Source of the DNA: Alphaproteobacteria bacterium
GTDB lineage: Bacteria; Pseudomonadota; Alphaproteobacteria; GCA-2731375
Assembly (NCBI GenBank): GCA_965232515.1
Contig: CBDDPY010000002.1
Location: 7,232,001-7,296,000 of the forward strand
Direction of reading: 5' to 3'
DNA length: 64,000 nt
Shown: in pieces, positions 34,447 through 57,120 of the stretch
Numbering within the stretch: the first letter of the stretch is position 1
How the letters are laid out: every line of letters starts with the position of its first letter
Translations under genes and position numbers: made by a program
Notes under the pieces: generated by a model
What the model was told of the DNA's origin: nothing
What the model saw: only the letters and a program-made list of their open reading frames with translations
Database searches by the model: none

Positions 34447-35571
34447 ATGACGAACAAGCGGAATTTGTGGTTGATGACGACGGCGATGGCGGTCGGACTG
34501 ACCTTCGGCGCGCAGGCCAAGGACACGGGCTACATCTTCGTCAGTAGTGAAAAAGACAATGCGATCAGCGTGCTGGACGGCAAATCTTATGAGCTGGTCA
34601 AGAAGATCGGCACGGCGGCACGGCCGCGGCATCTGCAGTTCAATCCCGACCGGACGCTGATCTATGTCGCCGCCGGCGACGGCAGCGCCATTGACGTCAT
34701 CGACGTCGGCAAGCTGGAACTTGTCGACCGGATCGGCGAGATCGACGACCCGGAACTGTTCGATCTCAGCCCCGACGGCAAGATCATGTACATCTCACTC
34801 GAAGATGACGCCAAGCTCGGCATTCTCGATCTCGAAACCTATTTCGCCGAACGCGAGGAAAAGCCTGAGCTGACGGTCGCCGCGCCGAGCGAGGACGACG
34901 ATGACGATGATGATGATGACGATGACGACGATGACGACGACGAGGAAGCCCGGGAAGACGACGACGACGATGACGAGATGCTGCCCGGCATGAAGACCGT
35001 CGAGGTCGGCGGCGAGCCGGAAGGCGTTCTGGCCAATCCCGACGGCAAGACCGTCTATGTGACATCCGAAGTCGCCAACATCGTGCACGTCGTCGACACC
35101 GAGGCGCTCGAAATCACCAAGAACGTCGTCGTCGGCAACCGGCCGCGCCGCTTTGTGATGACGCCGGACGGCAACGAGCTCTGGGTGTCCAATGAACTGA
35201 GCGGATCGGTCAGCATCCTGGATGCGAAAACCTACGACATCCTCGATACGATCAGCTTCCTGCCGCGCGGTTTCCGGCCCGAGGAAGTGACGCCGGTCGG
35301 CGTCACGATGACGGACGACGGCAGTACCGCCATCGTCGGCCTCGGCCGCGCCAACCACGTGGCCTTCGTCGACACCGCCAGCCGCAAGATCGAGGACTAT
35401 GTCCTGGTCGGCGAGCGGGCCTGGAACACGACCTTCAATCGGGACAACTCGCTGCTGTTCGTGACCAACGGGCTCAGCGACGACATCTCGATCATCGACG
35501 TCGCGTCCCGCAAGGTGATCAAGTCCGTACCGGTCGGCCGCGTGCCTCATACGGTCCTGATCGACGACTAG
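34447..35571 (+). CDS. PQQ-catabolism-associated YVTN beta-propeller protein (PedA2-like) with poly-Asp insertion
   Basis: Signal peptide, FVSSEKDN, ARPR, DPELF, EPEG, YVTSE, GRANHVA, VTNGLSDD and PVGRVP. Heads the ABC operon. Confidence 0.85.
   Translation: MTNKRNLWLMTTAMAVGLTFGAQAKDTGYIFVSSEKDNAISVLDGKSYELVKKIGTAARPRHLQFNPDRTLIYVAAGDGSAIDVIDVGKLELVDRIGEIDDPELFDLSPDGKIMYISLEDDAKLGILDLETYFAEREEKPELTVAAPSEDDDDDDDDDDDDDDDDEEAREDDDDDDEMLPGMKTVEVGGEPEGVLANPDGKTVYVTSEVANIVHVVDTEALEITKNVVVGNRPRRFVMTPDGNELWVSNELSGSVSILDAKTYDILDTISFLPRGFRPEEVTPVGVTMTDDGSTAIVGLGRANHVAFVDTASRKIEDYVLVGERAWNTTFNRDNSLLFVTNGLSDDISIIDVASRKVIKSVPVGRVPHTVLIDD
34891..34977 (+). repeat. Acidic low-complexity tract E-D16-EEARE-D6-E, encoded by mixed GAC/GAT codons
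   Basis: Read directly from the sequence: 27 of 29 residues are acidic, in frame. Confidence 0.95.
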
Positions 35572-35577
35572 ACCGCC

Positions 35578-36749
35578 ATGGGGCGATTGTTGGTCTGGCT
35601 GCTCAGCGCCGTTCTGGCGCTGGGCGCCGCGGCGCCGGTGGTGGCAGAAGACTTCACCATCGGCTATCTGCAACTGAGCAAGGATCCGCGCTACAGCAAA
35701 AAGCGGACCTTCGCCCGGCTGCTGCTGCAGCCCCTGGGCAGGCCTTATACGGGCGCGCGGGTTGCGATCGATGAGGTGAAATTCCACGGCGCGGCCGTCG
35801 GCGTCACCTTCAAGGTCAAGCGGCACAAGGGCAAGGGCTCGCTGGGCCTGCTGGAGGGCGTGGATAAGCTTCACGCCGACGGCGTGCGCTTTTTCGTGGT
35901 CGATGCGCCGGCAGATGTCCTGAGCGAGCTGGCCGGGGCAACCAAGGGCCGCGATCTCCTGCTGTTCAACGTCTCGGCGCGCGAGGACCGTCTACGCCAG
36001 GACCAGTGCCAGGCGCACCTCCTGCACGTCATCCCGAGCTACGCCATGCTGACGGACGCGCTGGTCCAATACCTGATCACGCGGAAGTGGCGCGAGATCC
36101 TGGTGCTGGAGGGCAAATCCGACGACGACAAGCAGTTCGCCGCGGCTTTCGCCCGCTCGGCCAAGCTCTACGGTGCCGAAGTCGTCGAGAGCCGGCCGTT
36201 CGTGCTCAGCAACGACCCGCGCCAGCGCGATCAGAACAACATCACGCTGCTGACAACAGGCGCCGACTATGACGTGGTTTTCGTCGCCGATACCGACGGC
36301 GAGTTCGCGCGCGATGTGCCCTATCAGACGGCGCGGCCGCGGCCGGTCGTGGGTAGCGAAGGCCTGGGTGCGGCGGCTTGGCACTGGGCCTGGGAACGGC
36401 ACGGTGCGCCGCAGCTTGAAAACCGCTTCCAGGACAAGGCCAAGCGGCCCATGCGCGACATCGACTGGGCGGCCTGGATGGCCGTGAAGGCGGTGGCGGA
36501 GGCGGTTCAGCGCACCGAGAGCAAGGACTTCGCCGTTCTGCGCGACTATCTGCGCGGGCCCGATCTTGTGCTCGACGGCTTCAAGGGCAACCGGCTCAAC
36601 TTCCGGCCCTGGAACAACCAGCTGCGCCAGCCGATCCTGCTGGTGACGCATAATTGGGTGGTCGAGCGCGCGCCCATGAAAGGCTTCTTGCATCAGACCA
36701 ACAACATGGACACCCTGGGCTTCAACGAGACGAACAGTGGCTGCCGGTT

Positions 36750-36753
<4 letters not shown>
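35578..36753 (+). CDS. ABC substrate-binding protein, PQQ-dependent alcohol dehydrogenase system (PedA1/LutA-like)
   Basis: LRQDQC, HVIPSYAMLTDALVQYL--RKW, DYDVVFVAD-DGEF, PRPVVGSEGL, WERHGAPQL--RF and FRPWNNQLRQP. Confidence 0.85.
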
Positions 36754-37498
<745 letters not shown>

Positions 37499-37502
<4 letters not shown>

Positions 37503-38311
37503 GCCCGATGCACTATCTCCGTTGTTTCGCCGGTATCGCTTTGCGCGAGGCGCTGCGCTTCCTGCATCAGCGCGAGCGCTTCATCGCCGCCTTGGTGCGG
37601 CCGCTGGTCTGGCTGGTCGTGTTCGCCGCCGGCTTCCGCAACGTGCTCGGCGTCTCGATCATCCCGCCGTACGAGACCTACATCCTCTACGAGGTCTATA
37701 TCGTGCCGGGCCTGATCGGCATGATTCAGCTTTTCAACGGCATGCAGAGCTCGCTGTCCATGGTCTACGACCGCGAGATGGGCAGCATGCGCACGCTGCT
37801 GGTCAGTCCGCTGCCGCGCTGGTATCTGCTGGTGGCGAAGCTGCTGGCCGGCACCATCGTCTCGATCCTGCAGGTCTATGCCTTCCTGATCATCGCCGCG
37901 GCTTTCGGCGTCGAGGTGCCGTGGCTCGGCTTTCTGACCGTGCTGCCGGCATTGATTCTGACCGGCCTGATGCTGGGCGCGCTCGGTCTCTTGCTGTCGT
38001 CGCTGATCAAGCAGCTCGAGAATTTCGCCGGGATCATGAACTTCGTGATCTTCCCGATGTTCTTCCTGTCGTCGGCGCTCTATCCGCTCTGGCGCATGCG
38101 GGAGTCGAGCGATCTGCTGTACATGATCTGCGCCGCCAACCCGTTCACGCACGCCGTCGAAACCATCCGCTTCGCGCTCTACGGCCAGGTCAATCTCGAG
38201 ATGCTGTTCTATACCTTGATCACGCTCCTGGTGTTCGTCGGCGCCGCGATCTACGGCTACAACCCCGCCCGCGGCATGCTCAGCCGCAAGGCCGGCGCCG
38301 GCGGCGGTTGA
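37499..38311 (+). CDS. ABC-2-type permease, PQQ-ADH system (PedC/LutF-like)
   Basis: RFLHQRERF--ALVRPLVWL, PPYETYI-YE-YIVPGL, SSLSMVYDREMGSMR and QLENFAG-MNFVIFP. Confidence 0.9.
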
Positions 38312-41074: not shown

Positions 41075-42166
41075 TCAGGCGTTGCCGTAGCGCCGGTAGA
41101 TAAATGCCGGCGCCTCGCTGGCGGACTCGGTACGTGCCAACTCGAAGATTTGTGGATGAAGCGGCGATTTCGCGCAGGCCGGATCGGTGTTGCCGGCATC
41201 GCCCGTCAGCGCCAGGGCCTGGCAGCGGCAGCCGCCCCAGTCGATCTCGCGCTGGTCGCAGCTTTTGCAAGGCTCGGGCATCCAGTCGGTGCCGCGGAAC
41301 CGCTGGAAGGCCGCGGAGTCTTGCCAGATCTCATTGAGCGGGCGATCGCGCACGGAATCGAAATCCAGTTCCGGTATGCTTTCCGCCGCGTGGCAGGGCA
41401 GCACCTTGCCGGCCGGCGAGACGTTCAGGAACCGCCGTCCCCAGCCGCCCATGCAGGCCTTCGGCCGCCGGGCATAGTAATCCGGCACGACATAGTCGAT
41501 CACCAGGACGCCGGTCAGCCGTTCGCGCGCCGCGTCGACGATTTCGGTCGCGCGCTCGATCTGCGCCAGCGTGGGGATGAAGGCGGCGCGGTTCTTGAGC
41601 GCCCAGCCGTAATACTGCACATGCGCGACCTCGAGCCGCGCGGCGTTCAGCGTGACGGCGAGATCGATCATCGTATCCAGCCGGTCAAGGTTCTGGCGGT
41701 GCACGACGGCGTTGATGGTGAGCGGCAGCCCCGCCGCGCGCACCAGCCGCGCGACGTCCATCTTACGCTGATGGCCGCCCTTGTAGCCGCCGATGCGTTC
41801 GGCCGTTTCTGTCTCGCTGTCCTGGATGCTGAGCTGCACGTGGTCGAGCCCGGCCGCGTCGAGCGCGGCGATACGGGCTTCGTCCAGCAATACGCCCGAG
41901 GTGATGAGATTGCTGTAGAGACCGGCGTCAGCGGCGTGCTGAACCAGGTCCGGCAGGTCCGGCCGCGCTGTCGGTTCGCCCCCCGAGAAGTGGATCTGCA
42001 GCACGCCCATGTCGGCGGCTTCGTCCATGACGCGGCGCCACTCGTCCGTCGTCAATTCGCCGCTGCGCTGCACGAGCTCCAGCGGATTGGAGCAATAGGG
42101 GCATTGCAGCGGACAGCGGTGGGTCAGTTCGGCCAGCAGGGCGAGTGGCGGATCCGGTCCGGTCAT
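41075..42166 (-). CDS. pqqE: PQQ biosynthesis radical SAM enzyme
   Basis: [37 protein letters not shown] and SPASM cysteines. Confidence 0.97.
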
Positions 42167-42447
42167 GCCTCGACCACTCCCTTGTCCGCCAGGTCCTGCA
42201 GCATGGCCAGCACGTCCTTGGCGATGGTCTCGCGCGGCGCTTCGAAGGTCGCCACCAGGTCGTCGATGATGGCGGCGACGCTGTCGCCCTTGCAGCGCTG
42301 CAGGACCTCGACGGCGATGTCGTCCGGCATCAGCACGCGTTCGGGCGCCAGGATGACCCAGCAGTCGCGCGCCTTGTCGAACCGCATCTTGCAGTGGCGC
42401 GGCAGCCGCGGCACGGAGTCTTCGCCGATGACCAGACGGTCGGCCAT
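42163..42447 (-). CDS. pqqD: PQQ biosynthesis peptide chaperone
   Basis: [18 protein letters not shown] and [13 protein letters not shown]. Lies between pqqC and pqqE. Confidence 0.93.
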
Positions 42448-42450
42448 GGC

Positions 42451-43194
42451 CTAGCGGTCCGTCGCCGGGTCGGGCACGAAAGCGCCCGGCGGGATATGGC
42501 CGGGCTCGACATAGGCGTAGTGAAGGGCGTCAAGCTGCGACCAGAGCACGCCGCACTTGAAGCGCAATGCATCGCAGACCGCCTTGCGCAGTTCCGGCGT
42601 GGTTGCGTGCTCCTTCACATGGTTTAACGCGAAATCGGCGTCCCGCGGCGCCTGGTGCAGGCGCTTGTCGAAATAGGCCAGCGTCTCCTGGCTGACGAAG
42701 TCGTAGTTCGCGAGCATACCGGCGACCCGCGTGGCGATGGTCGACGGCGCGAACATCTCGGTCAGCGACGAGGCGATGGCTTCCAGGATCGAACGGTCGC
42801 GCACGTAATGGATATAGGCCTCGACGGCAAACCGCGTGCCCGGCAGCAGGCCGTCGGTCGAGATCACATATGACCGGTCGAGCCCGAGGCCGTCGGTCAG
42901 CTTGAGCCAGCGTTCGATGCCGCCGGCGTCGGCGTTTTCGCCGTCATGATCCAGGATGCGCTGGCGCCAGATCCGCCTGAGCGCCGGATCGTCGAGCCGG
43001 GCCAGCAGGGTCGCGTCCTTGATCGGGATGCAAGCCTGGTAGTAGTAGCGGTTCAGCGCCCAGGCCTGGACTTGCGCCTTGCTCAGCTCGCCGGCGTTCA
43101 GAAGCTGGTGAAACGGATGCTTGTTGTGGTAGCGCTCGTCGCCGATCGCCCGCAGTTCCCGTTCCAGGTCGTCCGGTGTGGCAAGTGCGTTCAC
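42451..43194 (-). CDS. pqqC: PQQ synthase
   Basis: [38 protein letters not shown] and [11 protein letters not shown] start overlaps the pqqB stop. Confidence 0.96.
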
Positions 43195-44120
43195 AGCTCG
43201 ATCTCCATGCCGTCGCGGGCGACCTCCCAGCCGGCCGCCTCGACCTCGGCGCGTTCCGGGCTGTCGTCGACGATGACCGGGTTGGTGTTGTTGATATGGA
43301 TGAACATGCGTCGCGCCACATCGAGGCCGTCGAAGGCCGCGATCGAGCCGTCCGGTCCGGACATGCTCATATGTCCCATGCGTTGGCCGGTCTTCACGCC
43401 AACGCCGCCGGCGACCATCTCGTCGTCGGTCCATAATGTGCCGTCGAACATCACCAGCGGCGCGCCCTTGAGCCGTTCCGCCAGCTCGGGCGTCATCGCC
43501 GCGCAGCCCGGAATGTGAAAGAAGTGCGCGTCGCTGTTGCGTTCCGAGACGCGCAAGCCGACGGTGTCCTCCGCCTGGGTGCCGAAATTTGCGCCGGCAT
43601 CCGGGTTTTCGAGATAGAGCGCGACCTTGCCGGGCACGGCGAAGGCTTCGACCGACAGACCGATGTCGTCGCCGTCGCGCGTCGTCAGCGCAAACGGCTG
43701 GTCGAGCGCGAAATCCCGGCGCGCCACGAAATCCGGGTTGAGGACGTTGAAAATCGAGTTTTCCGCCAAGGTCTGAAGCACCCGTCTGCTGCCATAGAGC
43801 GCCAACGGCTGGCTCTCGCGCAGATTCAACAGTCCGGCGACGTGGTCGACATCGCCGTTCGTCAGCACCACGCCAGCGATGGGGCTATGGCGTTTGCCCG
43901 TCTTCGGGTGAAGCTGCCGATTGTCGGCAATCTGCTGCCGCAGGTCCGGGGATGCGTTGAACAGGCACCAGCGCTCGCCGTCGGCGCTCACCGCGATCGA
44001 CGATTGTGTCTGCGGCCGCGCGTTCGGATCTCCGCCGCGCGACCGCTGACAGTTGTCGCTGTTCGTGTTCCACTGCGGAAAGCCGCCGCCCGCCGCAGCG
44101 CCAAGTACAACTATATGCAT
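43191..44120 (-). CDS. pqqB: PQQ biosynthesis protein B
   Basis: VLGAAAGGGFPQWN, TQSSIAVS, NASPDLRQQ, DHVAGLL-LRE, MGHM and IHINNTNP. Confidence 0.96.
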   Translation of the reverse strand: MHIVVLGAAAGGGFPQWNTNSDNCQRSRGGDPNARPQTQSSIAVSADGERWCLFNASPDLRQQIADNRQLHPKTGKRHSPIAGVVLTNGDVDHVAGLLNLRESQPLALYGSRRVLQTLAENSIFNVLNPDFVARRDFALDQPFALTTRDGDDIGLSVEAFAVPGKVALYLENPDAGANFGTQAEDTVGLRVSERNSDAHFFHIPGCAAMTPELAERLKGAPLVMFDGTLWTDDEMVAGGVGVKTGQRMGHMSMSGPDGSIAAFDGLDVARRMFIHINNTNPVIVDDSPERAEVEAAGWEVARDGMEIEL

Positions 44121-44170
44121 CGCAACGTCCCGGACGTTGCGTTACCGGCCAGAGGCCGGAAATCGGAGTT

Positions 44171-44248
44171 TCAGTACTCCGCGCAGGCGTAGCAGTTGAT
44201 CTCGCAGCCTACGGCGATCTCGACGATCTTCGGTGTTGCCCACTTCAT
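44171..44248 (-). CDS. pqqA: PQQ precursor peptide, 25 aa MKWATPKIVEIAVGCEINCYACAEY (absent from ORF track)
   Basis: Translated by hand. E-x-x-x-Y core (EINCY), GGGAG RBS, immediately upstream of pqqB. Confidence 0.95.
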   Translation of the reverse strand: MKWATPKIVEIAVGCEINCYACAEY

Positions 44249-44469: not shown

Positions 44470-44778
44470 GCGGCGATTTGGCTTCGCGCTGGAAATGATC
44501 CGCCCCCCGCGCCATACTGTTCCGGTACGGCAGAGGGCATTGCGTTGGGGGTCGGGGCGTCTGCACCGGTCGACGCAAATAGTACGTACAGGCATCGATC
44601 GGTATCAGGCCGTCCGGCAGTGTTTGTCCTGTCAGCACCCATGCGCGGTGTCCGCTGCGTTGTTGGCAGCAAATGCACGTCTGTAAAGGAGTTGCACTTA
44701 AGACCATAGAGACCAGTACGCAGCGTATGGAAGTCGCGCCTACTCAAAACCAAGCAATCAAATTGGGGAGGGAAGTCG

Positions 44779-46569
44779 ATGAAGCGTGTTCCTAAAAGCA
44801 GCGTAACCCGGCGGCATATGTTGGCCGCCTCCGCGGTCGCGGCACTCGCCGCGGGCGCAATCTCCGTGCCGACCGCGCTGGCGGATTCTTCGGCCGACAA
44901 CATCAAAAACTGTCCGCCGAGCGATTGGTGCGCCTATCACCGCAGCACGGACAAGGCTTGGCGGCATAGCCCGCTCGACCAGATCAATACCGGAAACGTG
45001 AAGGACCTGAAGCCGGCCTGGATGTTCATGCCGGGCAACGGCCAGATGGGCATGCAGGCGACGCCGTTGGTGGTCGGCGGCACCATGTATGTCTCGACGA
45101 CGCCGTCCTCGGTCTGGGCGCTCGACGCCAAGACCGGCGCCCGCAAATGGGCGTTTCAGCCGGATATGGACGAGGCCGTGGTGTCGCGGTCGTTCTTCGC
45201 CCACACCCGTGGCCTGACCGTCGGCGACGGCCGGGTCTATATGGGCACGGCGGACGGTCGCCTGATCGCGCTGAACGAAGATTCCGGCGAAGTGATCTGG
45301 GACAAGCAGCTGGTCGACTCGCAGAAAGACACTGCCGGCTTCAGCGGCGCCGGCACGTTCGTCAGCTCCGACCTGCTGGTCATCGGCCAGAACGGCGGCG
45401 AGTATCCGGTCGAAGGGCGGATCTTCGGCGTCGATCCGAAAAGCGGCGATGTCAAGTGGACGTTCTATACGACCGGCCGCGGCGACGAGCGGGCGCTGGC
45501 CACCTGGGGCGGCGATTCCTGGAAGTATGGCGGCGGCGGCTCCTGGCAGCCCGGCACCGTCGACTACGAGAACAACCAGATCCTGATCGGCACCGGTAAT
45601 CCCAATCCGGACTATGACTTCTGCGGCGCCGAATGCATGGACGCCAACGCCAAGGCACACCGGCCCGGCACCAACCTCTACACCTCGTCGACGATCGCGC
45701 TCGATCTCGATACCGGCAAGCTGAACTGGTACTTCCAGGAAGCGCCGAGCGATCCCTACGACTACGACTCGGCAGTCGGCGAATATGTGATGATCGAGGG
45801 CGAGGACGGCCGCAAGCTGGTGCTGCACCCCGGCAAGAACGGCTTCAACCACGTTCACGACCGCAAGACCGGTCAGCCGATCAACGTCTATCCCGCCCAG
45901 AAGTCGCAGAACTGGACCACCGGCTTCAACCTCGAGACCGGCCAGTGGGAGAACATGCTCTGGCCGAAAGCCGGAGAGAAGACGTTGGTCTGCCCGGCGA
46001 TCGACGGCGGCCATAGCTGGAACGCGGGCGCCTACAGCCCCGATACCGGGCTGCAATACCGCGTCGTCAACGAGTGGTGCATGTACCTCGTCGTGAACCC
46101 GGAGGAAGGTGGCACGGCCACGGCCGGCACCGAAACCCGCGTCACCGATCCTTTCGCGCAAGTCTTCATGGCGGCCGAATGGGAAGGCACCGATCCGCCC
46201 GGCGACACCACGCACGGTCGGCTCGTGGCGCGCGATCCGGTCTCCGGCGACATCGCCTGGGAGAAGCGGTACGACATCATTCCGCACTCCGCCCTGCTGT
46301 CGACCGGCGGCGGCCTTGTCTTCAACGGCACCTATGACGGGTTCCTGGAGGCGCTGGACGCCAAGACGGGCGACGTGCTGTGGCGCTTCAACAACGGCAC
46401 CGGCCACAATGGCGGCATCGTGTCGTACGAGGTTGACGGCAAGCAGTATGTCGCGGCGGCGGTTGGCCACGGCTCGTATGTGGGCCGGGCGTTGGCCGAC
46501 CACTACCACAAGGACAAGCTGATTGGTTATCAGGAGAGCGCGGCGATCGTCGTGTTCGCGCTCGACTAG
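44779..46569 (+). CDS. PQQ-dependent dehydrogenase (methanol/ethanol superfamily), divergent clade, probable lanthanide type, Tat signal
   Basis: SPLDQINTGNVKDL, QATPLV, GGEY, GTGNP, DYD, GKNGF, CP--DGG-SW and GKQYVA. N-terminal TRRHML. Confidence 0.9.
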   Translation: MKRVPKSSVTRRHMLAASAVAALAAGAISVPTALADSSADNIKNCPPSDWCAYHRSTDKAWRHSPLDQINTGNVKDLKPAWMFMPGNGQMGMQATPLVVGGTMYVSTTPSSVWALDAKTGARKWAFQPDMDEAVVSRSFFAHTRGLTVGDGRVYMGTADGRLIALNEDSGEVIWDKQLVDSQKDTAGFSGAGTFVSSDLLVIGQNGGEYPVEGRIFGVDPKSGDVKWTFYTTGRGDERALATWGGDSWKYGGGGSWQPGTVDYENNQILIGTGNPNPDYDFCGAECMDANAKAHRPGTNLYTSSTIALDLDTGKLNWYFQEAPSDPYDYDSAVGEYVMIEGEDGRKLVLHPGKNGFNHVHDRKTGQPINVYPAQKSQNWTTGFNLETGQWENMLWPKAGEKTLVCPAIDGGHSWNAGAYSPDTGLQYRVVNEWCMYLVVNPEEGGTATAGTETRVTDPFAQVFMAAEWEGTDPPGDTTHGRLVARDPVSGDIAWEKRYDIIPHSALLSTGGGLVFNGTYDGFLEALDAKTGDVLWRFNNGTGHNGGIVSYEVDGKQYVAAAVGHGSYVGRALADHYHKDKLIGYQESAAIVVFALD

Positions 46570-46581
46570 CTGACGTGAAGC

Positions 46582-46621
46582 CGGCCGGGGCAGGCGGCGT
46601 GTAGCCGTCCTGCGCCGGCCG
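46582..46621 (+). terminator. GC-rich hairpin between the dehydrogenase and cytochrome genes
   Basis: CGGCCGG-g-GCAGG-CGGC-gtgta-GCCG-t-CCTGC-g-CCGGCCG. No U-tract, so more likely stabilising. Confidence 0.4.
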
Positions 46622-46645
46622 AGCTGTCGTTGATCATTTGTCAGT

Positions 46646-47086
46646 GTGGGAGAAGTGTTCGTGACGTCGACAACGCGACGCCGCGGCTGGACATATGCCG
46701 CGGCCTTGATCATTGGTTTGCTTGTCGCGCCTGCTTGGCTGGCGGGCTCGGCGCAGGCCGGTGAAAGCTCCGCCTATCCGGACGTGAATCCGATGTCCGG
46801 CGACAAGGACGCCATCCACGAAGGCGGCAAGCTTTATTCGAAATGGTGCCGGCAGTGCCATGGCCGCAAGGCCGACGGCGTGTCGCAGCGGTTCGGAAAA
46901 TACTCGGGCGATCTGCGCAAGTTCTGGCGCGGCTACCCCGAATTCGTCGTGATCGTGCTGAACGGCCGGCCGAAAAAGAAGATGCCGCCGTGGGGCGGCG
47001 TGCTGGACGAGGACGAGATCGCCCAGATCGCCGCTTATCTGGAAACGCTGGCGATCGAGGGTGCCAACTGGAAACGGATGAGGTGA
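46646..47086 (+). CDS. Periplasmic class I cytochrome c (c550/PedF/XoxG-like electron acceptor)
   Basis: Signal peptide, NP--GD--AI--G--LY, WCRQCHG heme motif and KMPPWGG axial Met. Start uncertain (46646 or 46661). Confidence 0.9.
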   Translation: MGEVFVTSTTRRRGWTYAAALIIGLLVAPAWLAGSAQAGESSAYPDVNPMSGDKDAIHEGGKLYSKWCRQCHGRKADGVSQRFGKYSGDLRKFWRGYPEFVVIVLNGRPKKKMPPWGGVLDEDEIAQIAAYLETLAIEGANWKRMR

Positions 47087-47091
47087 CGGCA

Positions 47092-47484
47092 ATGCGAACG
47101 ATAATCATGGCGCTCATCGCGTTCCTGGCGGCCGGCGTCGCCAACGCGGCCGAACCCTATACGCTGGCGGAGGGGACCTGGGTCTGCCAGTCCGAAGAAG
47201 CCTATGACGACGCCATCGCCGAGGTGAAGCAGCGCCAGGGCAAGAACCTGGGCGAGTTGCAGCGGCGATTGAAAGAGCAGGGCTACTGCACCTACATGGA
47301 CGACGACGCGCTGGAGGACCTGATGGCGCCGTTCGTGCAGGTGCTGGAGGAGAACGGCGACAAGGTCAAGGTCACCTTCATCGTCGAGTACTACAAGCGC
47401 ATCGCCATGCTGCACCGCAAGTTCGCGCGCATCCAGTACACGGGCTGGACCGAGAAAACCAATCTGCGGGACTATTATCGGTAA
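47092..47484 (+). CDS. Small exported hypothetical protein (130 aa)
   Basis: ATG 47092 after a GAGG RBS, signal peptide MRTIIMALIAFLAAGVANA, typical codon usage, co-oriented in the operon. Confidence 0.8.
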   Translation: MRTIIMALIAFLAAGVANAAEPYTLAEGTWVCQSEEAYDDAIAEVKQRQGKNLGELQRRLKEQGYCTYMDDDALEDLMAPFVQVLEENGDKVKVTFIVEYYKRIAMLHRKFARIQYTGWTEKTNLRDYYR

Positions 47485-49329: not shown

Positions 49330-49355
49330 GGTGAGAAGAGAGGCGGAGAACAGGC

Positions 49356-50561
49356 ATGACCGACAACAGGTTCGGGCGCCGACAGATCCTGAAAGCTGGT
49401 GGGGCGGGCGCCCTCGTGGCGCTGTGTCCGCCGGCAATCGCGCAAGCTCTGGCCGCCGTCGCGCATCCCAATCGCATCCTTGTCGTGCTGGAGCTATCGG
49501 GCGGCAACGACGGCCTGAACACGCTGGTGCCGTACGGCGACGACGTCTACTACCGGCACCGGCCGACGATCGGCATCAAGGCGCAGCATCTGAGAAAGAT
49601 CGACGATCATTTCGGCTTCAGCGAGGGCATGGCCGGCTTCGAGCGGCTCTATAGGGACGGCCGGATGGCGGTCGTGCACGGCTGCGGCTACGCCGGTCCG
49701 TCGTTCTCGCACTTTACATCGATGGCCTATTGGCACACGGCGGCGCCCAACAGCGGCGCGGCGCACGGCTGGATCGGGCGGCTCGCCGATGCCATGCAAC
49801 CCGACGCGGCGCCGAACTTCATCGTCAACGTCGACGCGGTCGAGTCGCTGGCGGTGCGCAGCCGGCTGCATACGCCCGTCGTGTTCGACGAGCCGGACGC
49901 CTTTGCCCGCGACGGTTTTTTCGCCGAGCGCGATGTCTTCAACCGGCTGGTCGGCGACGCCAAGACCGGCAATGCCGGCCAACGCTATCTCCGCGCCGTT
50001 GCGCAAAGCGCGCGCGATGCCTCGCTCTTGGTGCGTGAGGCCTGGGCAGATTACCGTTCGCCGGTCGACTACGGTCTGGTGCCGGTCGACCTGCCGAAGA
50101 TCGCCGCGCTGATCGCGGCCGACCTGCCGACGCGGCTCTACTACACCTCGTTCCGCAACAACGCCTTCGACACGCATGTGCATCAGCCGAACCTGCACGC
50201 GCGACTGCTGACCTATGCATCCGATGCCGTTGCCGGCTTCATGCAGGACATGGAACGCATCGGCCGGGCCGACGATGTGGTCATGCTGGTGTTTTCCGAG
50301 TTCGGGCGGCGGGTGCCGGAGAACACCAATCTCGGCACCGATCACGGCACGGCCAACCTGATGTTCGTCGTCGGCAAGCCGGTGAAGGGCGGCCATTACG
50401 GCACGCCGTCCAGCCTGACCGAGCTCGACGACGGCGACAACCTGATCTTCACGACCGACTTCCGGCGGGTCTACGCCAGCGTGATCGAAGGCTGGCTCGG
50501 CTATCCCGACGCCGCCGATATCCTGAACGGCCGCTTCGACACGCTGCCCATGTTCGCGTGA
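49356..50561 (+). CDS. DUF1501 family protein, Tat signal
   Basis: GRRQILK, LVVLELSGGNDGLNT-VPY, SHF, GWIGR, FDTH, FSEFGRR--EN--GTDHG and DFRRVYA. Confidence 0.9.
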   Translation: MTDNRFGRRQILKAGGAGALVALCPPAIAQALAAVAHPNRILVVLELSGGNDGLNTLVPYGDDVYYRHRPTIGIKAQHLRKIDDHFGFSEGMAGFERLYRDGRMAVVHGCGYAGPSFSHFTSMAYWHTAAPNSGAAHGWIGRLADAMQPDAAPNFIVNVDAVESLAVRSRLHTPVVFDEPDAFARDGFFAERDVFNRLVGDAKTGNAGQRYLRAVAQSARDASLLVREAWADYRSPVDYGLVPVDLPKIAALIAADLPTRLYYTSFRNNAFDTHVHQPNLHARLLTYASDAVAGFMQDMERIGRADDVVMLVFSEFGRRVPENTNLGTDHGTANLMFVVGKPVKGGHYGTPSSLTELDDGDNLIFTTDFRRVYASVIEGWLGYPDAADILNGRFDTLPMFA

Positions 50562-50971
50562 TGCGGCGGGCGTTCGCCGGCCTGGTAGGGTTGACGCTGG
50601 CGGGACTGCCGTCCGCGTTTGCCGGCGATAAGACCATTCAGGGCGTGATCTCCGTCCGGCAGGATCTGGCGAGGCATCTCGGGCCGGACCATCGCCTCGC
50701 CATCAAAATCTACCATCCCGGCGACGGCATCGAGCTCGACACCAAGTACCAGATCCTGCCGACCTTCAAGCTACCGCTCGAATTTCGGATCGGGCCCGCC
50801 ATCGACATGAGCGGCCGGACCAAATGGTCGGCTTATGTGGTCGAGGTGTTCACGGACACCGACGGCGACCTGCTGTCGGTCGGTCCGGGTGAATTGCTGG
50901 CGAGAACGGCGGAACCGGTACCCCTGGGCACGGTCGACCTCGGGATCGAACTGAATACCTTGCGCGACTGA
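50558..50971 (+). CDS. Exported protein resembling the stand-alone C-terminal domain of CcmI/CycH
   Basis: Signal peptide; pattern G-ISV---LA, LPLEFRI--A-DM, V---DTDGD---PGEL. Similarity judged by eye. Confidence 0.55.
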   Translation: MMRRAFAGLVGLTLAGLPSAFAGDKTIQGVISVRQDLARHLGPDHRLAIKIYHPGDGIELDTKYQILPTFKLPLEFRIGPAIDMSGRTKWSAYVVEVFTDTDGDLLSVGPGELLARTAEPVPLGTVDLGIELNTLRD

Positions 50972-50977: not shown

Positions 50978-52339
50978 TCAGACGCCGGATGTCGGGCGGC
51001 TGTAGGTGCAGGCGGCGCCGAAATCCGGACCGTCGACATCGATGAAGCCGTAAGCAACGGCCTCGGGATCGCGGGCCGGCTGGGCCCGGCGCAGAAGAGC
51101 CGCTTTCAACTGCGGCGCCCACCAGTTGGGATGTTTCGCCAGCAGGCAGGCGGCCAGCGCCGTGATCCGCGCCGTCGCGTAGCTCGACCCCGAAGCCCGG
51201 TCGATCCGGCCGAAGAAATCGATAACCGGAATGTTCTCGCCCGGCGTCATCACGTCGACGATGCCGGCGCCCCAGTTGGCGGCGCTGGCCAGCGCGCCAT
51301 CGGCGGTGGCCGAGGTGACCGTCACCATGTTGTCGAGCGGCAACGCGGCCGGATAGACCGGATTGCGGCGGATATCGCGGCCGTCGTTGCCGGCGGCGAC
51401 GATGAACAGCATCTCCGGGTGCTGCCGGGCGATGCGATAGAACGGCAACCATTCCTCGCGGTCGTCGCTGACCAGCGAAAGGTTGACCAGGCGCACGCCG
51501 TTCGTCGCGGCGTCCTGGATCAGCGCCCCCATGCGACGCATGTCGGGACGGGGATAGCGGTAAGGCAACAGCCGCACGACCGGCGCTTCGGCCAGCAGCA
51601 CGCTCGCCGTCTTGGTGCCGTGCCGGGCCGGGAAGAAGGCCGAACGCACGGGGTGCGCGTCGAACGGCCGTTCGTCCAGGTCCCAGTAATCGTAACCCAG
51701 CACCCGGTTGTCGGCGCCGCGCGCCAGGCGGCGGCGGATCTGCGGCAGCAGATAGTTGATCCCGGTATCGACCAGCGCGACGGGCACGCCGCCCGGATCG
51801 CGGCCTACAGGCACCGGCGGGTTCAGCGCCTCGCGCGCGCCCGTCGGCTCCAGTCCATTGTCGAGGTCCTCGATCCAGCCGGGGTTTCCGTCGTCGTCGT
51901 AGTGCAGCCGCCGGGCGGTTTCGATGTGGCAGTCCGCATCCGTCATGGCGAGCAGGGTCGGCCGGTCGCCGTCGGCGCTGTTGTATTGCGCGCTGACCCG
52001 GCGAAGCTGACCGTTTGCCGCCAGCCGTTCGACCGTCAGGGTGCCGCCGGGAACCTGGAAGCGACGCCGCCAGCCCATCATGCTCATGCGGACCTGCCGG
52101 CCCATGGGCCGGGCGTTCGGCAGGCGCCGCGACATGGCCTGCAATTGCGCGTGCGTGCGGACGTTGCAGGCCAGGCTGACGGCGGCGCGCAGCAGCGACG
52201 CCGCTTCGATATTGGCCTGCGCGGGATGGCTGGTGATCGTCATGGCGACGACCAGACCGGCGGCGAATGGCAGGATGTTCGATTTAAGCTTCAAAATGCG
52301 ACACGTTTCCGCGCGGTGCGCATGATCTGCTGGCGACAA
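50978..52339 (-). CDS. S8 (subtilisin-like) serine peptidase with unknown N-terminal domain
   Basis: VDTG (Asp), HGT (His), AAGNDG oxyanion Asn, YPAA and SGSSYATA (Ser). Start uncertain. Confidence 0.8.
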   Translation of the reverse strand: MSPADHAHRAETCRILKLKSNILPFAAGLVVAMTITSHPAQANIEAASLLRAAVSLACNVRTHAQLQAMSRRLPNARPMGRQVRMSMMGWRRRFQVPGGTLTVERLAANGQLRRVSAQYNSADGDRPTLLAMTDADCHIETARRLHYDDDGNPGWIEDLDNGLEPTGAREALNPPVPVGRDPGGVPVALVDTGINYLLPQIRRRLARGADNRVLGYDYWDLDERPFDAHPVRSAFFPARHGTKTASVLLAEAPVVRLLPYRYPRPDMRRMGALIQDAATNGVRLVNLSLVSDDREEWLPFYRIARQHPEMLFIVAAGNDGRDIRRNPVYPAALPLDNMVTVTSATADGALASAANWGAGIVDVMTPGENIPVIDFFGRIDRASGSSYATARITALAACLLAKHPNWWAPQLKAALLRRAQPARDPEAVAYGFIDVDGPDFGAACTYSRPTSGV

Positions 52340-52364
52340 TGCCGCCGATCATTGCCGCCGATGG

Positions 52365-53198
52365 TTACCAAATCCTTTCCACCCGCGCATCCCGCATCCG
52401 GGCGTTCCGCCATTGCTGACGCTGGTTCCGGGCCGCCCGCGCCCGCTGACGCAGGATTTCGACCATGCGTTCGGCGTCTTCCGGGCTGATTTCCTGCGGC
52501 GTGGCGGCCTGTTGCGTCTGGACGTTGTTCTCGGTCTTGATGCTGTTGTTCGGCGCCTGCGAGGCTTCGCGGCCGGATGTGTCCTGCTGCTCGTCCTGTT
52601 CCGCGCCCGATTCGGCCGGGCGGTTGTACTGCGCTTCCTGATTGAAAGCCTGACCGATATTGGACGATGTCTTCTGATTGCGGGCGCGCGGGTTGGCCTG
52701 TGGCTGGACCTGCTGTCGCTCGATCTCGCGCAAGAGGCGCAGCGACATCTCGAGATTGTAGCGGGTGTCGGCGCGCTCGGGATCGAGCGCCAGGCTGCCG
52801 CGGTAGTAGGCCATTGCCGCGCGCGCCGGCGTCAATGCGTCCTGCAGCGTGTTCAACGCTTCCAGCGCTTGCTGATACTTCGCATTGCCGAGGTTGTAGC
52901 GCAACCGCGCCTCCAGCTCGGGCCCGGCCGTTTGCAGCGCCTTTTCATAGTGTGTCAGCGCCTCGGCATAGAGTTGACGCTGGTAATAGGCATCGCCCAG
53001 ATCGAAATGGATGGTGGCGTCATCCGGCTGCAATCGCAGCGCCGCTGCGTATTTCTCGGTCGCGGTCGCATAGTCGCCGGCCGCATAAAACGCGTTGCCC
53101 GCCGCGACCAGGTCATCGGCGGTCTCGTTGTTGGCGGCCAGAGCCGGGTTTGCCGCCAGCATCAGCAGCAATGAGAATGCATGGAGCCGAGATGTCAT
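52365..53198 (-). CDS. TPR protein, BatC-like
   Basis: Signal peptide, GNAFY / DLGDAYY / YNLGNAKY / YNLE TPRs, Q/N-rich linker and PEDAERMVE...W C-terminus. ATG 53198. Confidence 0.8.
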   Translation of the reverse strand: MTSRLHAFSLLLMLAANPALAANNETADDLVAAGNAFYAAGDYATATEKYAAALRLQPDDATIHFDLGDAYYQRQLYAEALTHYEKALQTAGPELEARLRYNLGNAKYQQALEALNTLQDALTPARAAMAYYRGSLALDPERADTRYNLEMSLRLLREIERQQVQPQANPRARNQKTSSNIGQAFNQEAQYNRPAESGAEQDEQQDTSGREASQAPNNSIKTENNVQTQQAATPQEISPEDAERMVEILRQRARAARNQRQQWRNARMRDARVERIW

Positions 53199-54217
53199 GG
53201 CTGGGCCTCTCGTCGGCCGCCGGCAGGCAGCAGCATGTCGGCGGCCAGCAGCAGGAGCGCGGCCAGCACGAACCATTGATAGCGGGCGATCGGCTGCTCG
53301 GAGCTGGCGGCGTCGATGCGCCGGCGCGGCTTCTGGGCGATCTGCGTTCGGTAAAGCTTGGCGAGCGATCCCGTCTCGCCGCCGGCGGCCACATAGGCGC
53401 CGTCCGTCAGCTGCGTCAGATTGCGCAACATGTCTTCCTGCAGGCGCGATGTGACGACCGCATCCTGGTGCTGCAGCAAGCGCCTTTCGCCATCGTCGTC
53501 CGAGATCGGAATCGTGGCGCCGTCGACCGGATCTCCGATACCGACCGCGTAGATGCTGACGCCGCCGGCGGCCGCGGCCTTGGCCGCTTCCGTCGGCAGG
53601 GTGTCGTGGTCCTCGCCGTCGGTGACCAGGATGACGTCGGTGAAACCTTCGGCCGGCGCGCCGAAGCCGTGCAGGCTTTGCCGTAGCGCGGCGCCGATGG
53701 CCGTGCCCTGAAGCGTCACGGTGCCGGTGCCGACCAGGTCGAGCCGTTCGCGGAAGAAGTCGTAGTCGAGCGTCAGCGGGCAATGCAGGCTGGCGCGGCC
53801 GGCAAAGGCGATCAGGCCGAGCCGGTGGCCGCCGTCTTCTGAGACGGCCATGACCAGCTCATCGACCAGCGCTTTCGCGCGTTCGAGGCGGTTCGGCGCG
53901 GCATCCTCGGCCAGCATGCTCAGTGAGACATCGAACACGACCAGCAGATCGCGTCCCTCCCGCGGCACGTCCTCGACGCCGCGCCCCCACTGCGGCTGCG
54001 TCAACGCGATGACGAGGAAGGCGACTGCCGCCAGCAGACAAGCCGCCTTCAACCATTGCCGCCGCCGATTCAGATCGACGACCAGACGCGCGGCCAGCGG
54101 CCTGCCGACGAGCGTTGCCAGCGCCGCGTGTTTGCGGCGAAAACCGTAGGCGTAGAGCGCCAGCAGCGCCGGCACGACGGCCAGCAGATAGATGAAATGA
54201 AAGGCCTCGAACTGCAT
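53195..54217 (-). CDS. vWA-domain membrane protein, BatB-like
   Basis: ALTQPQWG, DVSLSMLAED-APNRLERAK, CPLT-D, QGTAIG, TDGEDH and TDGAY. Confidence 0.88.
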   Translation of the reverse strand: MQFEAFHFIYLLAVVPALLALYAYGFRRKHAALATLVGRPLAARLVVDLNRRRQWLKAACLLAAVAFLVIALTQPQWGRGVEDVPREGRDLLVVFDVSLSMLAEDAAPNRLERAKALVDELVMAVSEDGGHRLGLIAFAGRASLHCPLTLDYDFFRERLDLVGTGTVTLQGTAIGAALRQSLHGFGAPAEGFTDVILVTDGEDHDTLPTEAAKAAAAGGVSIYAVGIGDPVDGATIPISDDDGERRLLQHQDAVVTSRLQEDMLRNLTQLTDGAYVAAGGETGSLAKLYRTQIAQKPRRRIDAASSEQPIARYQWFVLAALLLLAADMLLPAGGRREAQP

Positions 54218-54227
54218 GCCGTCGTAC

Positions 54228-55250
54228 CTATGGGACCGTTCTGAGACGCGTGTTGACCAGCGCGATCTCGAACAGCAGCAGGCCGAAGGCCGCCAGGACG
54301 AACACGGGAAAGCCCTCGACGTAACGCTGATAGTGATCGGCGACGTTGCGGGCCTTTTCCAGGCGGTCGATCTCGGCGTAGATCGCCCGCAGGGCGGCGC
54401 CGTCGGTGGCGCGGAAATAGCGGCCGCCGGTCAGCTCGGCGATCTGCGTCAGCGTATGCTCGTCGATATAGACCTGGGTCTGGCGCAACTCGGTGCCGCC
54501 GCCGCGGGCGCGCACCGGCATCAGCGCGGTGCCGCGACTGCCGGCGCCAATGGTGTAGAGCTTGATGCCGAGCGCCTGGGCAATCTGGGCGGCCTGCAAT
54601 GGCGCGGTGTCGCCGGCGTTGTTGCTGCCGTCGGTCAGCAGGATCAAAACCCGGCTCGACCCCGCGGCCCGGCGCAGCCGCTCGACGCCCATGACGATGG
54701 CGTCGCCGATCGCGGTGCCGTCCTCTTCCGGCAGCGGCACGATCGTGACCCGGTCGACCTGCGACAGCAGCGCCGTGTGATCGAGCGTGAGCGGGCTGAG
54801 CCCGTCGGCAAACCTAGCAAACGTCAGCAGCCCGATCAGGTCGCCGCCGCGGCCGGTCAGCGCATCGGCGTCGCCCTCGACGAAGTCGACGAAGGTCCGC
54901 TTCACCACTTCGAGCCGGTCGGTCTGGCGATTGTCCATGGTCAGGTCCAGCGCGCCCATGCTGCTGGAGATATCGACCGCCATGACGATGGCGATGCCCT
55001 CGGCGTGGACCTCGGTGGTTTCGAGTCCCCATTGCGGCCGCGCCAGCGCGATGACGCAGAGCGACAGCGCCAGCGCCCTGAACCAGGGCAGGCCGGCATG
55101 CAGCAGCGCCGTCGGCGTGCGCGCCAATTGCCGGAGGTCGCCCGTCGCCGAATAGCCGAGCGCCGCCGGCCGACGCCGGCGCGCGTGCAGATACAGCAGC
55201 ACCGGCACCAGCAGGAGCAACAGCAGCGCCCAGGGCTCGGCCAGTCTCAT
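54228..55250 (-). CDS. vWA-domain membrane protein, BatA-like
   Basis: ALARPQ, DISSSM-A-D, PLTLDH, DGTAIGDAI, LTDGSNNAG, TGGRYFRA and IY-EID-LE. ATG 55250. Confidence 0.9.
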   Translation of the reverse strand: MRLAEPWALLLLLLVPVLLYLHARRRRPAALGYSATGDLRQLARTPTALLHAGLPWFRALALSLCVIALARPQWGLETTEVHAEGIAIVMAVDISSSMGALDLTMDNRQTDRLEVVKRTFVDFVEGDADALTGRGGDLIGLLTFARFADGLSPLTLDHTALLSQVDRVTIVPLPEEDGTAIGDAIVMGVERLRRAAGSSRVLILLTDGSNNAGDTAPLQAAQIAQALGIKLYTIGAGSRGTALMPVRARGGGTELRQTQVYIDEHTLTQIAELTGGRYFRATDGAALRAIYAEIDRLEKARNVADHYQRYVEGFPVFVLAAFGLLLFEIALVNTRLRTVP

Positions 55251-56206
55251 GGCGTTTCCGGTTGCATTGATGGCTGGACGGTCACGTTCCGATCCGCCGT
55301 CGCTTCGACGAACGCCATCACCTCGCCGAGTGCGTGTCGCATATCCGGGCCTTGGGGCCGGTGCCGGCCGAACTTCACCCGATCGAAGTCCCGCAGCAGG
55401 ATGCCGATCCGCTCGGACCGTTGCGCCAGCGTCTCGCCGGCATGGCTCATGGCGGCGAGAGTCTCGTCGGTTGTCCGCCTTGGCGCCTCGAGGCCGAAAC
55501 GCCAGAGCACGTAGCGCCGGAGGATATCCGACAAGCGCACATAGAAGCGGTCGACCTGCGCCTGGTCGTTCGGATCCAGCGCGCGCAGCGCCGCGAGCGC
55601 CAGCTCGTGCGCCGGCTGCGCCTGCTGCCGCGGCGTCCACCGTCGGCGCCAGAACCACAGGCCGGTCAGCGCCAACAGCAAAGCGGCGCCGGCCAGCCAC
55701 CAGACCGGCGACAGCCGCATCGGTGTCGTCAGGGCGACGGGCGGCGCGACGTCACGCAGCGCGGTGATGGCGGCATCGGCCGGCACGAGCGTGATCACGT
55801 TCACTGGCACGGCCGTCGTCCGCAGCTCGCGCTGCCGCAGGCCGGCATCGCCTACCGTCTGCTGCACAACGGCGGTCAGCGGCGGGATCACCACTTCGCC
55901 CGCCTGTCGCGGCGCCAGCACATAGGCCTGCCGCCAAAGCTGCCGGCCGTCGTCCGTGGCGATGGGGGACGGCCGGTTCTCCGTGACGACCGAGAAGTGT
56001 TCCAGTTCGGCCGCGACATCTGGAAACGCGACCAGCGCCGCCGCCGGGGCCATGACGGTCAGCGTCATGCGCAGACGCTCGGCGACGCCCAGCTCCTGCC
56101 GGTCGACGGACACGGTCAATTCGGCGTCCTGCGCCCAAACGACGGCCGGCCATATGAGCAGTAGAATGAGCCACAGCATCGACAAGGTTCCGCGACGACC
56201 GGTCAT
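55247..56206 (-). CDS. Bat-operon membrane protein (BatD-like Ig domain plus DUF4381-like region)
   Basis: Signal peptide, SVDR-E--V-E--R-TLTV, LRDV-PP, TM helix, LSDILRRY, RTT-E and D-VKF. ATG 56206. Confidence 0.7.
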   Translation of the reverse strand: MTGRRGTLSMLWLILLLIWPAVVWAQDAELTVSVDRQELGVAERLRMTLTVMAPAAALVAFPDVAAELEHFSVVTENRPSPIATDDGRQLWRQAYVLAPRQAGEVVIPPLTAVVQQTVGDAGLRQRELRTTAVPVNVITLVPADAAITALRDVAPPVALTTPMRLSPVWWLAGAALLLALTGLWFWRRRWTPRQQAQPAHELALAALRALDPNDQAQVDRFYVRLSDILRRYVLWRFGLEAPRRTTDETLAAMSHAGETLAQRSERIGILLRDFDRVKFGRHRPQGPDMRHALGEVMAFVEATADRNVTVQPSMQPETP

Positions 56207-56214
56207 GACGGCGC

Positions 56215-57102: not shown

Positions 57103-57120
57103 GGCCGGGCGCGCCTCCGG

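Follow-up and report, generated by a model that had tools for sequence, protein, structure and literature searches.

A distinct clade of PQQ-dependent dehydrogenases lacking the vicinal disulfide, with a linked cytochrome c and an orphan periplasmic protein

Described systems and the place of the dehydrogenase

Among alcohol dehydrogenases (ADH) that depend on pyrroloquinoline quinone (PQQ), only the XoxF clades and ADH type 2b (ExaF/PedH) are named as biochemically confirmed lanthanide enzymes in the available part of the relevant source (PMC11996626). An extra Asp two positions past the catalytic one, which gives the motif D-x-D, is described as required for lanthanide coordination in the accessible sections of two sources (10.1101/2020.02.25.964783; PMC11996626). 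Many PQQ dehydrogenase clades with D-x-D have been predicted in earlier surveys, as far as their available text goes (PMC11996626; bioRxiv 10.64898/2026.07.10.737718), thus the motif alone is not news. The subject of this work is one PQQ-dependent dehydrogenase gene from a 64,000-nucleotide stretch of the genome of an Alphaproteobacteria bacterium (assembly GCA_965232515.1, contig CBDDPY010000002.1, positions 7,232,001 to 7,296,000), and this whole stretch is referred to as the window. The protein is an eight-bladed PQQ dehydrogenase of the methanol/ethanol superfamily and lies outside the biochemically confirmed lanthanide clades. We consider it fairly probable, though well short of certain, that it is a Sec-exported lanthanide-PQQ dehydrogenase with a cytochrome c acceptor. 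What is new here is the dedicated cytochrome c of its clade, an orphan protein which we call small, and the conserved accessory set to which they belong.

PedH/ExaF (PQQ-ADH type 2b) is the best solved match of the dehydrogenase. The two share the eight-bladed fold, the Glu/Asn/Asp-x-Asp set, a soluble periplasmic nature, a separate gene for a small cytochrome c acceptor and a PedA1A2BC-type transporter nearby. The dehydrogenase is only 32-33% identical to PedH/ExaF and differs from it in having no vicinal Cys-Cys, in the Lys that replaces an Arg in contact with PQQ, and in a CxxxC loop of 20 residues that follows the metal Asn, and it belongs to a separate deep lineage; its cytochrome is CcoP/c6-like (29.6 bits to the PedF model, cut-off 122), and two extra proteins, small and orf137, are encoded beside it. 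The XoxF/MxaFI systems (xoxFGJ, mxaFJGIRSACKLD) are alike in operon logic and in their MoxR-DUF58-VWA array, and XoxF has the same D-Y-D, whereas identity to solved XoxF and MxaF is 27-30%, Cys-Cys is missing here, and the third gene is neither MoxJ-like nor MxaI-like (no Pfam or NCBIfam match above cut-off). With type II quinohemoprotein ADH (ADH IIB/IIG, qhEDH; 1kb0, 1yiq, 1kv9) the dehydrogenase shares Lys in K-N-G, as seen in the alignment to 1kb0, and the cytochrome c encoded next to it is similar to the heme domain at their C-terminus, specifically that of ADH IIG (1yiq residues 566-682, 31 bits), so that dehydrogenase and cytochrome together look like a split quinohemoprotein. The heme domain is a separate gene in our locus, and the type II enzymes, including the paralogue par2 of the same genome, keep Cys-Cys and have D-Y-T (the calcium type), while the dehydrogenase described here does not.

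The dehydrogenase is not a chance open reading frame (ORF), given its PF01011 match in Pfam (233.7 bits, E 6e-69, cut-off 26.7), the 4632 homologues found at E<=0.001 in a word-indexed search, and an AlphaFold2 model with a predicted local distance difference test score (pLDDT) of 92.3 and a predicted template modelling score of 0.90, built on an 81-row alignment. The third-position GC of 0.86, in a window with 66% GC, is likewise consistent with a real gene. The signal peptide covers approximately residues 1-35, and the chain stops at residue 596 with the propeller; no CxxCH was found in it, hence there is no fused C-terminal heme domain. The closest solved sequence was PedH (6zcv/6zcw; 261 and 257 bits). 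The model, superposed on solved structures with Foldseek, gave PedH 6zcw/6zcv as the best matches (template modelling score, TM, 0.82-0.87; root-mean-square deviation 2.7-2.8), followed by XoxF, ExaA, MxaF and the quinohemoproteins. Approximately 25 solved PQQ dehydrogenases were matched at TM 0.80-0.87.

All motifs quoted in the earlier note on this sequence were present: TRRHML at residues 10-15, SFFAHTRG at 138-145, GGEY at 206-209, GNPNPDYDFCGAECMD at 273-288, DPYDYDSA at 325-332 and GKNG at 352-355, and alignment with PedH puts them at homologous positions. In this alignment S138-F139 stands where PedH has the vicinal Cys-Cys, the metal Glu and Asn correspond to E208 and N274, D-F-D to D328-Y-D330, and R-N-G to K353-N-G. 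PQQ-contacting R144 and W256 also align, which gives E208, N274, D328, D330, R144, W256 and K353 as the metal and PQQ residues of the dehydrogenase. The four metal residues E208, N274, D328 and D330 were invariant in two alignments (30/30 and 24/24 clade sequences), R144, W256 and W414 were conserved in the clade, and the quoted motifs were invariant or nearly so among the 30 sequences.

The sequence features of 24 members of the clade described below were compared with those of 57 representatives, all of full length, from the nearest clusters (50% identity) outside it. Every feature considered was present in 24 of the 24 clade members. Among the 57 other representatives, Cys-Cys was missing in 28, D-x-D was present in 52, Lys stood at the Arg position in 24, and Tyr replaced Trp before the catalytic Asp in 8; D-x-D and the lack of Cys-Cys occurred jointly in 25. 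None of these five features is special by itself in the superfamily. Specific for the clade is the length of the loop that follows G-N-P, together with its two invariant cysteines, CxxxC. All 57 representatives have 8-17 residues where the clade has 20, and none has a cysteine within this loop. In the dehydrogenase the loop comprises residues 277-296, with C282 and C286 placed by the model in a short helix (283-287). Three histidines, H142, H412 and H564, are also invariant in the clade and variable at the same positions in the other representatives. The earlier note had inferred a distinct clade from the odd features; among these the CxxxC loop is clade-specific, and the loss of Cys-Cys, D-x-D, Lys for Arg and Tyr for Trp turned out to be common among the representatives.

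The clade, its sister group and the linked genes

Among the 4632 homologues, the best 120 were 70-97% identical over 89-100% of the query, and nearly all of them were metagenomic. In an exhaustive search the nearest full-length 50%-identity representatives were 43% (P0123) and 41% (P0124) identical, with all others at 39% or less, and identity of the clade to any solved enzyme was not higher than 33%. The scan of species-representative genomes gave 312 relatives; the 80 best of them, at 79 loci, were retained. Fifty-eight of these loci were 62-80% identical to the dehydrogenase, and all were from metagenome-assembled genomes (MAGs) or Candidatus genomes. Their hosts were Rokubacteria, Entotheonella/Tectimicrobiota, Rhodospirillaceae and other Alphaproteobacteria, Burkholderiales, Gammaproteobacteria, SAR324 and Geminicoccaceae, together with single bins of Chloroflexia, Acidimicrobiia and Jiangellaceae. 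Among the species-representative genomes listed, the clade was confined to uncultivated organisms. The other 21 loci, chiefly from cultured Bradyrhizobium, were 43-48% identical and constitute the sister group. One clade member, P0080, is annotated with 698 residues, where an N-terminal extension of about 100 residues, coiled-coil-like, replaces the signal peptide. Either its start was called wrongly, or the protein exists in a fused or anchored form.

The maximum-likelihood tree comprised 84 rows (14 from the clade, 7 from the sister group, 6 same-genome paralogues and 57 representatives), which are a chosen subset of hits with no named PedH or ExaF sequence among them. The clade was obtained with a support of 100 in the Shimodaira-Hasegawa-like approximate likelihood-ratio test (SH-aLRT) and a stem of 0.49, and the clade with the sister group with SH-aLRT 95. 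The whole lineage of 25 rows, also with SH-aLRT 100, was separate from XoxF, from the quinohemoproteins and from all rows bearing Cys-Cys; the genome's own XoxF (par1) and all Cys-Cys-bearing representatives were found beyond a split from the clade supported at 100. Together with identities of 62-80% inside the clade versus 43-48% to the nearest group, this bears out the distinct clade anticipated in the earlier note. In the literature searched we found no description of the clade, of its CxxxC loop or of its cassette; the types of Keltjens were left unmapped on our tree, and the clade may stand unnamed in published trees. A sentence in PMC8561711 on the lack of Cys-Cys in 'groups 7, 8 and 9' seems to mean the groups G7-G9 of that paper itself, and it was not taken as evidence here.

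The sister group, which is possibly one of Keltjens' PQQ-ADH types, resembles the clade in the lack of Cys-Cys (RQTHSPYNRG), in D-F-D, in H-P-N-K-G-G, in a loop insertion after G-N-P and in a CBB3-family cytochrome c encoded downstream. It is unlike the clade in its sequence distance, its cysteine-free loop, its MoxJ-like third gene and its cultured hosts. The gene order in the sister group was dehydrogenase, CBB3-family cytochrome c (18 of the 21 loci) and a family-3 binding protein (16 of 21). The best NCBIfam match of this binding protein was the MoxJ-like 'quinoprotein dehydrogenase-associated' model TIGR03871 with 66 bits, below cut-off. The protein small of the clade therefore occupies a MoxJ-type position.

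Gene linkage was counted by tblastn of the window proteins against the 58 clade loci, with loci having enough downstream DNA as denominators. The cytochrome c was found near the clade dehydrogenase in 52 of 56 loci and small in 48 of 52, and orf137 followed with 18 of 52. For the genes further downstream the counts were BatA 13/36, BatB 13/39, DUF58 10/33, MoxR 9/33 and subtilase S8 7/45. An independent all-against-all clustering agreed with this picture. Since linkage to cytochrome c and small is kept across the clade and linkage to the pqq and PedA-type genes is not, the core unit consists of dehydrogenase, cytochrome c and small. The DUF1800 and DUF1501 genes, which stand between small and orf137 in the window, occurred near the dehydrogenase in 0 of 58 loci, while in other genomes orf137 follows small directly. 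This pair is thus an insertion within the cassette, seen in this genome only when compared with the 58 other clade loci.

The cytochrome c gene starts 77 nt 3' of the dehydrogenase. Its product matched PF13442 with 50.7 bits, while it stayed far below cut-off with both the PedF model and the MoxG model (25.4 bits for the latter). The best relatives in PDB were CcoP heme domains (54 bits), and the heme domain of 1yiq mentioned above was weaker. The cytochrome is the probable electron acceptor of the dehydrogenase. A probably larger substrate pocket and a different electron exit route had been supposed in the earlier note; the acceptor candidate, a dedicated c-type cytochrome encoded directly downstream, is of a conventional kind.

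The residues C32, C66 and G118-W-T120 are invariant in small. No Pfam match was obtained for it at E<=0.1, NCBIfam gave only GWxTD with 17.6 bits (cut-off 28), and a profile search gave no PDB sequence relative below E 0.2; another profile search recovered only 40 homologous clusters, all unnamed. According to its model (pLDDT 88.5), small consists of a beta-barrel of modest size and two helices, for which Foldseek found nothing in PDB at E<=0.001. A wide structural search with VIA-align gave a best Z of 5.6 and many SH3/SH3b rows at Z 3-5, so that the modelled protein appears weakly SH3b-like, at a level too weak for assignment to a fold family or function. In the ESM Atlas small had no named neighbour; Sap1 (0.92) and SH3_3 (0.86) were both flagged as often chance. 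The complex prediction of dehydrogenase residues 36-596 with small residues 20-130 returned 'no answer' with a score of 0.00, which counts neither way. For orf137 neither a Pfam match at E<=0.1, an NCBIfam match nor a PDB relative below E 0.2 was found, and its proximity of 0.88 to Ig_CycH clusters in the ESM Atlas is a lead only.

Metal, substrate and export

The mechanism that we propose is as follows. The dehydrogenase would be exported via Sec to the periplasm, with PQQ supplied by the adjacent pqqABCDE operon. Its metal would be held by E208, N274, D328 and D330, and would most likely be a light lanthanide rather than calcium. The enzyme would oxidise some alcohol or aldehyde, and the monoheme cytochrome c encoded downstream would take up the electrons and hand them on to the respiratory chain. 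The enzyme belongs to a deep lineage of the methanol/ethanol dehydrogenase superfamily in which the vicinal disulfide was lost, and inside it to a very tight clade with its own CxxxC loop near the metal Asn and the three invariant histidines. The clade travels as a cassette of dehydrogenase, cytochrome c and small, often then orf137. In its MoxJ-like operon position, small may act as a maturation or docking factor, and the MoxR-DUF58-VWA-TPR array may load the metal, as MxaRSACKL does for methanol dehydrogenase.

Lanthanide use is, in our estimate, fairly probable. The context that supports it consists of a true XoxF in the same genome and a transporter of the PedA1A2BC type approximately 7 kb upstream of the dehydrogenase. 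The beta-propeller protein of this transporter is PedA2-like (TIGR03866, 311.8 bits over a cut-off of 287.3) and the binding protein is PedA1-like (TIGR03863, 461.9 over 413.6); both NCBIfam models are entitled 'PQQ-dependent alcohol dehydrogenase system'. A transporter of this type is needed by P. putida for lanthanide-dependent growth, according to the available part of the report (PMC6839425). The extra Asp had been put forward earlier as the established marker of lanthanide-type enzymes. D330 does align with the PedH Asp and is found in the whole clade, but the motif is also present in most of the representatives outside it.

The rival closest to this reading is a calcium-dependent PQQ dehydrogenase, in which the second Asp would be a trait of the lineage with no say in the choice of metal. 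It is unlikely in our opinion, yet it deserves weight, as the 52 representatives with D-x-D belong to very different clades, mixed metal motifs have been noted within families once thought uniform (PMC11996626, available part), and the confirmed lanthanide enzymes in that source are restricted to the two groups named at the beginning. On the other side, the Asp is found at the same position in every solved lanthanide enzyme aligned (PedH), D330 is invariant in the clade, and the genome holds both XoxF and the PedA-type transporter.

Several further observations weigh against a lanthanide-PQQ dehydrogenase with a cytochrome c acceptor. D-x-D alone is no proof of lanthanide use, and with 52 of 57 representatives it is near the default state and a weak discriminator. 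The model TIGR03075 (methanol/ethanol family) was not reached, with 412.2 bits against a cut-off of 480.05, and the second-best NCBIfam model was 'acido-empty-quinoprotein' (310 bits, cut-off 650). The latter family is regarded as one that does not bind PQQ. The accessible part of PMC12276312 calls the vicinal disulfide of methanol dehydrogenase critical to its catalysis, and this disulfide is absent here. As regards gene linkage, the cytochrome was missing in four clade loci (L024, L048, L054 and L057), three of which, L048, L054 and L057, are second copies in MAGs that also hold a complete cassette. Of the 58 other clade loci, only 1 has the pqq genes close to the dehydrogenase, and 0 have the PedA-type transporter there. 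Not more than about one clade locus in three has the MoxR array at a distance of up to 8 kb, and since it is a widespread Bat-type operon, its linkage may partly be synteny among related Alphaproteobacteria.

Public RNA data are part of the same weighing. Four public runs were mapped on window positions 41000-51000. In three RNA libraries (X4, X9 and X15), made from related strains with 90-98% identity, assembled contigs extend over the pqq operon as well as over the genes for the dehydrogenase, the cytochrome and small, although they belong to relatives and DNA may be present in such libraries. The depth in X9 was 1351 over pqqA; it was 28.8 across pqqB-E, 27.6 in the dehydrogenase gene and about 7.7 downstream, and this unevenness points to RNA rather than DNA. 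Raw poly-A reads (X21) gave nothing over 41000-51000. Taken together, the data lend weak support to expression of the locus. Runs from coral, marine and algal metagenomes contributed small shares of the sampled words and were not used as habitat evidence. Two pieces from the pqqA region were observed separately. The first, in X9, is a piece of approximately 300 nt over pqqA (window 44048-44349), to which the depth of 1351 belongs. The second, in X4, is a 430-nt piece from between pqqA and the dehydrogenase (44254-44682) with a depth of 30, against approximately 5-8 in neighbouring bins, and it carries adapter sequence at its 44254 end. The depth in this region could reflect an abundant pqqA message together with a leader or a small RNA; no Rfam match was found there.

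As for the substrate, one may think of a methanol or formaldehyde dehydrogenase, a functional XoxF analogue serving methylotrophy in uncultivated lineages. The layout of dehydrogenase, cytochrome c and a third periplasmic protein is xoxFGJ-like, the array is similar to MxaRS/ACKL, and the extreme conservation across phyla is what would be expected for a small and ubiquitous substrate. We find this doubtful, given that the dehydrogenase is placed outside the XoxF and MxaF branches, that a canonical XoxF already exists in the same genome, that no formaldehyde or one-carbon assimilation genes are linked in the window, and that the closest structure is an ethanol dehydrogenase. Equally speculative is a more far-reaching proposal, in which the clade would be a self-contained, horizontally spread module. 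It would comprise a disulfide-less lanthanide-PQQ dehydrogenase with a lid rebuilt by the CxxxC loop and the three histidines, a private CcoP-like cytochrome c, the weakly SH3b-like small in replacement of the PQQ-inserting MoxJ chaperone and orf137 as an Ig-like helper. The last two, from protein families that have no known relatives, would serve the maturation of the enzyme, and the substrate would be neither methanol nor ethanol.

The earlier note had further suggested a Tat (twin-arginine translocation) signal and folding or cofactor loading in the cytoplasm. The N-terminus does read S-V-T-R-R-H-M-L-A ahead of a hydrophobic stretch and an A-L-A cleavage site, and one Tat-type model, TIGR02811, gave a weak match at E 0.0073, the sole match of this kind. 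Its 16.6 bits are, however, far under the cut-off of 48.45. The TRRHML motif is present here but not conserved among orthologues. In the 110 full-length orthologue N-termini, RR was found in 33, RRx## in 5 and [ST]RRx## in 2; most of them are plain Sec-type signal peptides, and a 97%-identical relative, P0002, reads TRW at the TRR site. Moreover, the adjacent cytochrome c likewise has RRR in its n-region, and c-type cytochromes mature after Sec export. Loading of PQQ into MxaF is performed by the chaperone MxaJ, as stated in the available part of PMC12276312. Tat export is on these grounds very improbable, and Sec export of the dehydrogenase is preferred.

Neighbouring genes, paralogues and significance

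The genes around the dehydrogenase are listed in Table 1. Directly after pqqE, as if co-transcribed with the pqq operon, there are genes for an NMT1/THI5-type binding protein, a permease and an ABC ATPase. Rfam, promoter and terminator scans of 43900-47700 gave nothing useful. Further away, a 1089-residue TPR-CHAT protein is encoded beside a two-partner secretion pair. Pairs of hydantoinase/oxoprolinase A and B together with TRAP transporter genes occur twice in the window. In the Bradyrhizobium loci L073-L088, HydA, HydB, DctP, DctQ and DctM stand directly upstream of the sister-group dehydrogenase, and these shared neighbours may have come about by chance or be left over from a gene neighbourhood of older date. 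A hydantoinase/TRAP link was considered as substrate evidence and rejected, for the Bradyrhizobium loci are closely related and the copies in the window are 13-35 kb off.

Table 1. Positions of the dehydrogenase, its partner genes and other features in the window
Feature	Position	Strand	Remarks
PQQ-dependent dehydrogenase	44779..46569	+	596 aa, ATG start
Monoheme c-type cytochrome	46646..47086	+	146 aa, signal peptide, CRQCH heme motif, MPPW Met ligand region
small	47092..47484	+	130 aa, periplasmic/secreted orphan, begins 5 nt past cytochrome stop
DUF1800	47515-49329	+	between small and orf137
DUF1501	49356-50561	+	between small and orf137
orf137	50558..50971	+	conserved periplasmic protein, no known family; DRLI..YHP..G.E.D.KY ... 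FTD.D.DVLS..GEL
pqqABCDE operon	41075..44248	-	divergent from and upstream of dehydrogenase
pqqA	44171-44248	-	25 aa, E-x-x-x-Y
pqqB	43191-44120	-	
pqqC ORF	42451-43434	-	
pqqD	42163-42447	-	
pqqE	41075-42166	-	
NMT1/THI5-type binding protein, permease, ABC ATPase	38563-41199	-	
PedA-type transporter genes	34447..38311	+	~7 kb upstream; beta-propeller, binding protein, ABC ATPase, ABC-2 permease
Convergent array	50978..58134	-	MoxR-DUF58-VWA-TPR module downstream of orf137
MoxR AAA ATPase	57121-58134	-	
DUF58	56215-57102	-	
orf140	55752-56174	-	
BatA-like VWA	54228-55700	-	
BatB-like VWA	53195-54217	-	
TPR BatC-like	52365-53783	-	
Subtilase S8	50978-52339	-	
TPR-CHAT protein and two-partner secretion pair	18970-29856		
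TPS-domain exoprotein	22244-27934		1896 aa
ShlB/FhaC-type transporter	28141-29856		
Hydantoinase/oxoprolinase A+B and TRAP transporter genes, first set	3100-10465		
Hydantoinase/oxoprolinase A+B and TRAP transporter genes, second set	59472-63252		

The 7.39-Mb genome contains seven PQQ dehydrogenase genes, and four of the paralogues pass the TIGR03075 cut-off with 558-797 bits. The true XoxF, par1, has 936 bits to M. extorquens XoxF (6oc5) and lies 3 kb from the quinohemoprotein ADH par2 (D-Y-T, C-terminal CAQCH). Two further paralogues, par6 and par7, are divergent, with no Cys-Cys and D-W-D, and par3 has likewise no Cys-Cys and D-W-D, with 564 bits to TIGR03075. Three MoxR homologues were found in the genome, one of them in the window. 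The second array, L089 (contig C2, 1214000-1232000; locus coordinates 5984-15393, minus strand, co-directional), has the order MoxR, 300-residue DUF58-like ORF, orf140, VWA, VWA, TPR, 441-residue protein, Rieske, par3 and 163-residue ORF, where the 300-residue ORF was likened to the DUF58 protein of the window by tblastn similarity only. The Rieske iron-sulfur protein beside the quinoprotein par3 suggests an unusual electron acceptor.

Two of the three MoxR loci are thus within approximately 12 kb of a PQQ dehydrogenase gene. From seven genes in 7.39 Mb, the chance of this is roughly estimated as 0.002, and adjacency at two of three loci by chance is unlikely. MxaR is a MoxR ATPase, MxaS is a DUF58 protein, and MxaC and MxaL are VWA proteins. 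According to the accessible part of PMC12276312, calcium insertion into methanol dehydrogenase requires MxaR, S, A, C, K and L together, while MxaJ inserts PQQ. By its position beside the dehydrogenases, and by this role of MxaRSACKL, the array is the candidate for metal loading in the mechanism given above.

The clade is a clean candidate for testing lanthanide use beyond XoxF and ExaF/PedH, and its compact set of partner genes suits joint expression. It bears on three questions: whether the metal can be predicted from the Asp motif beyond the known clades, how a quinoprotein can do without the Cys-Cys ring, and which role the two orphan accessory proteins play. If the self-contained module considered above were true, the clade would represent a second, independent solution to quinoprotein assembly.

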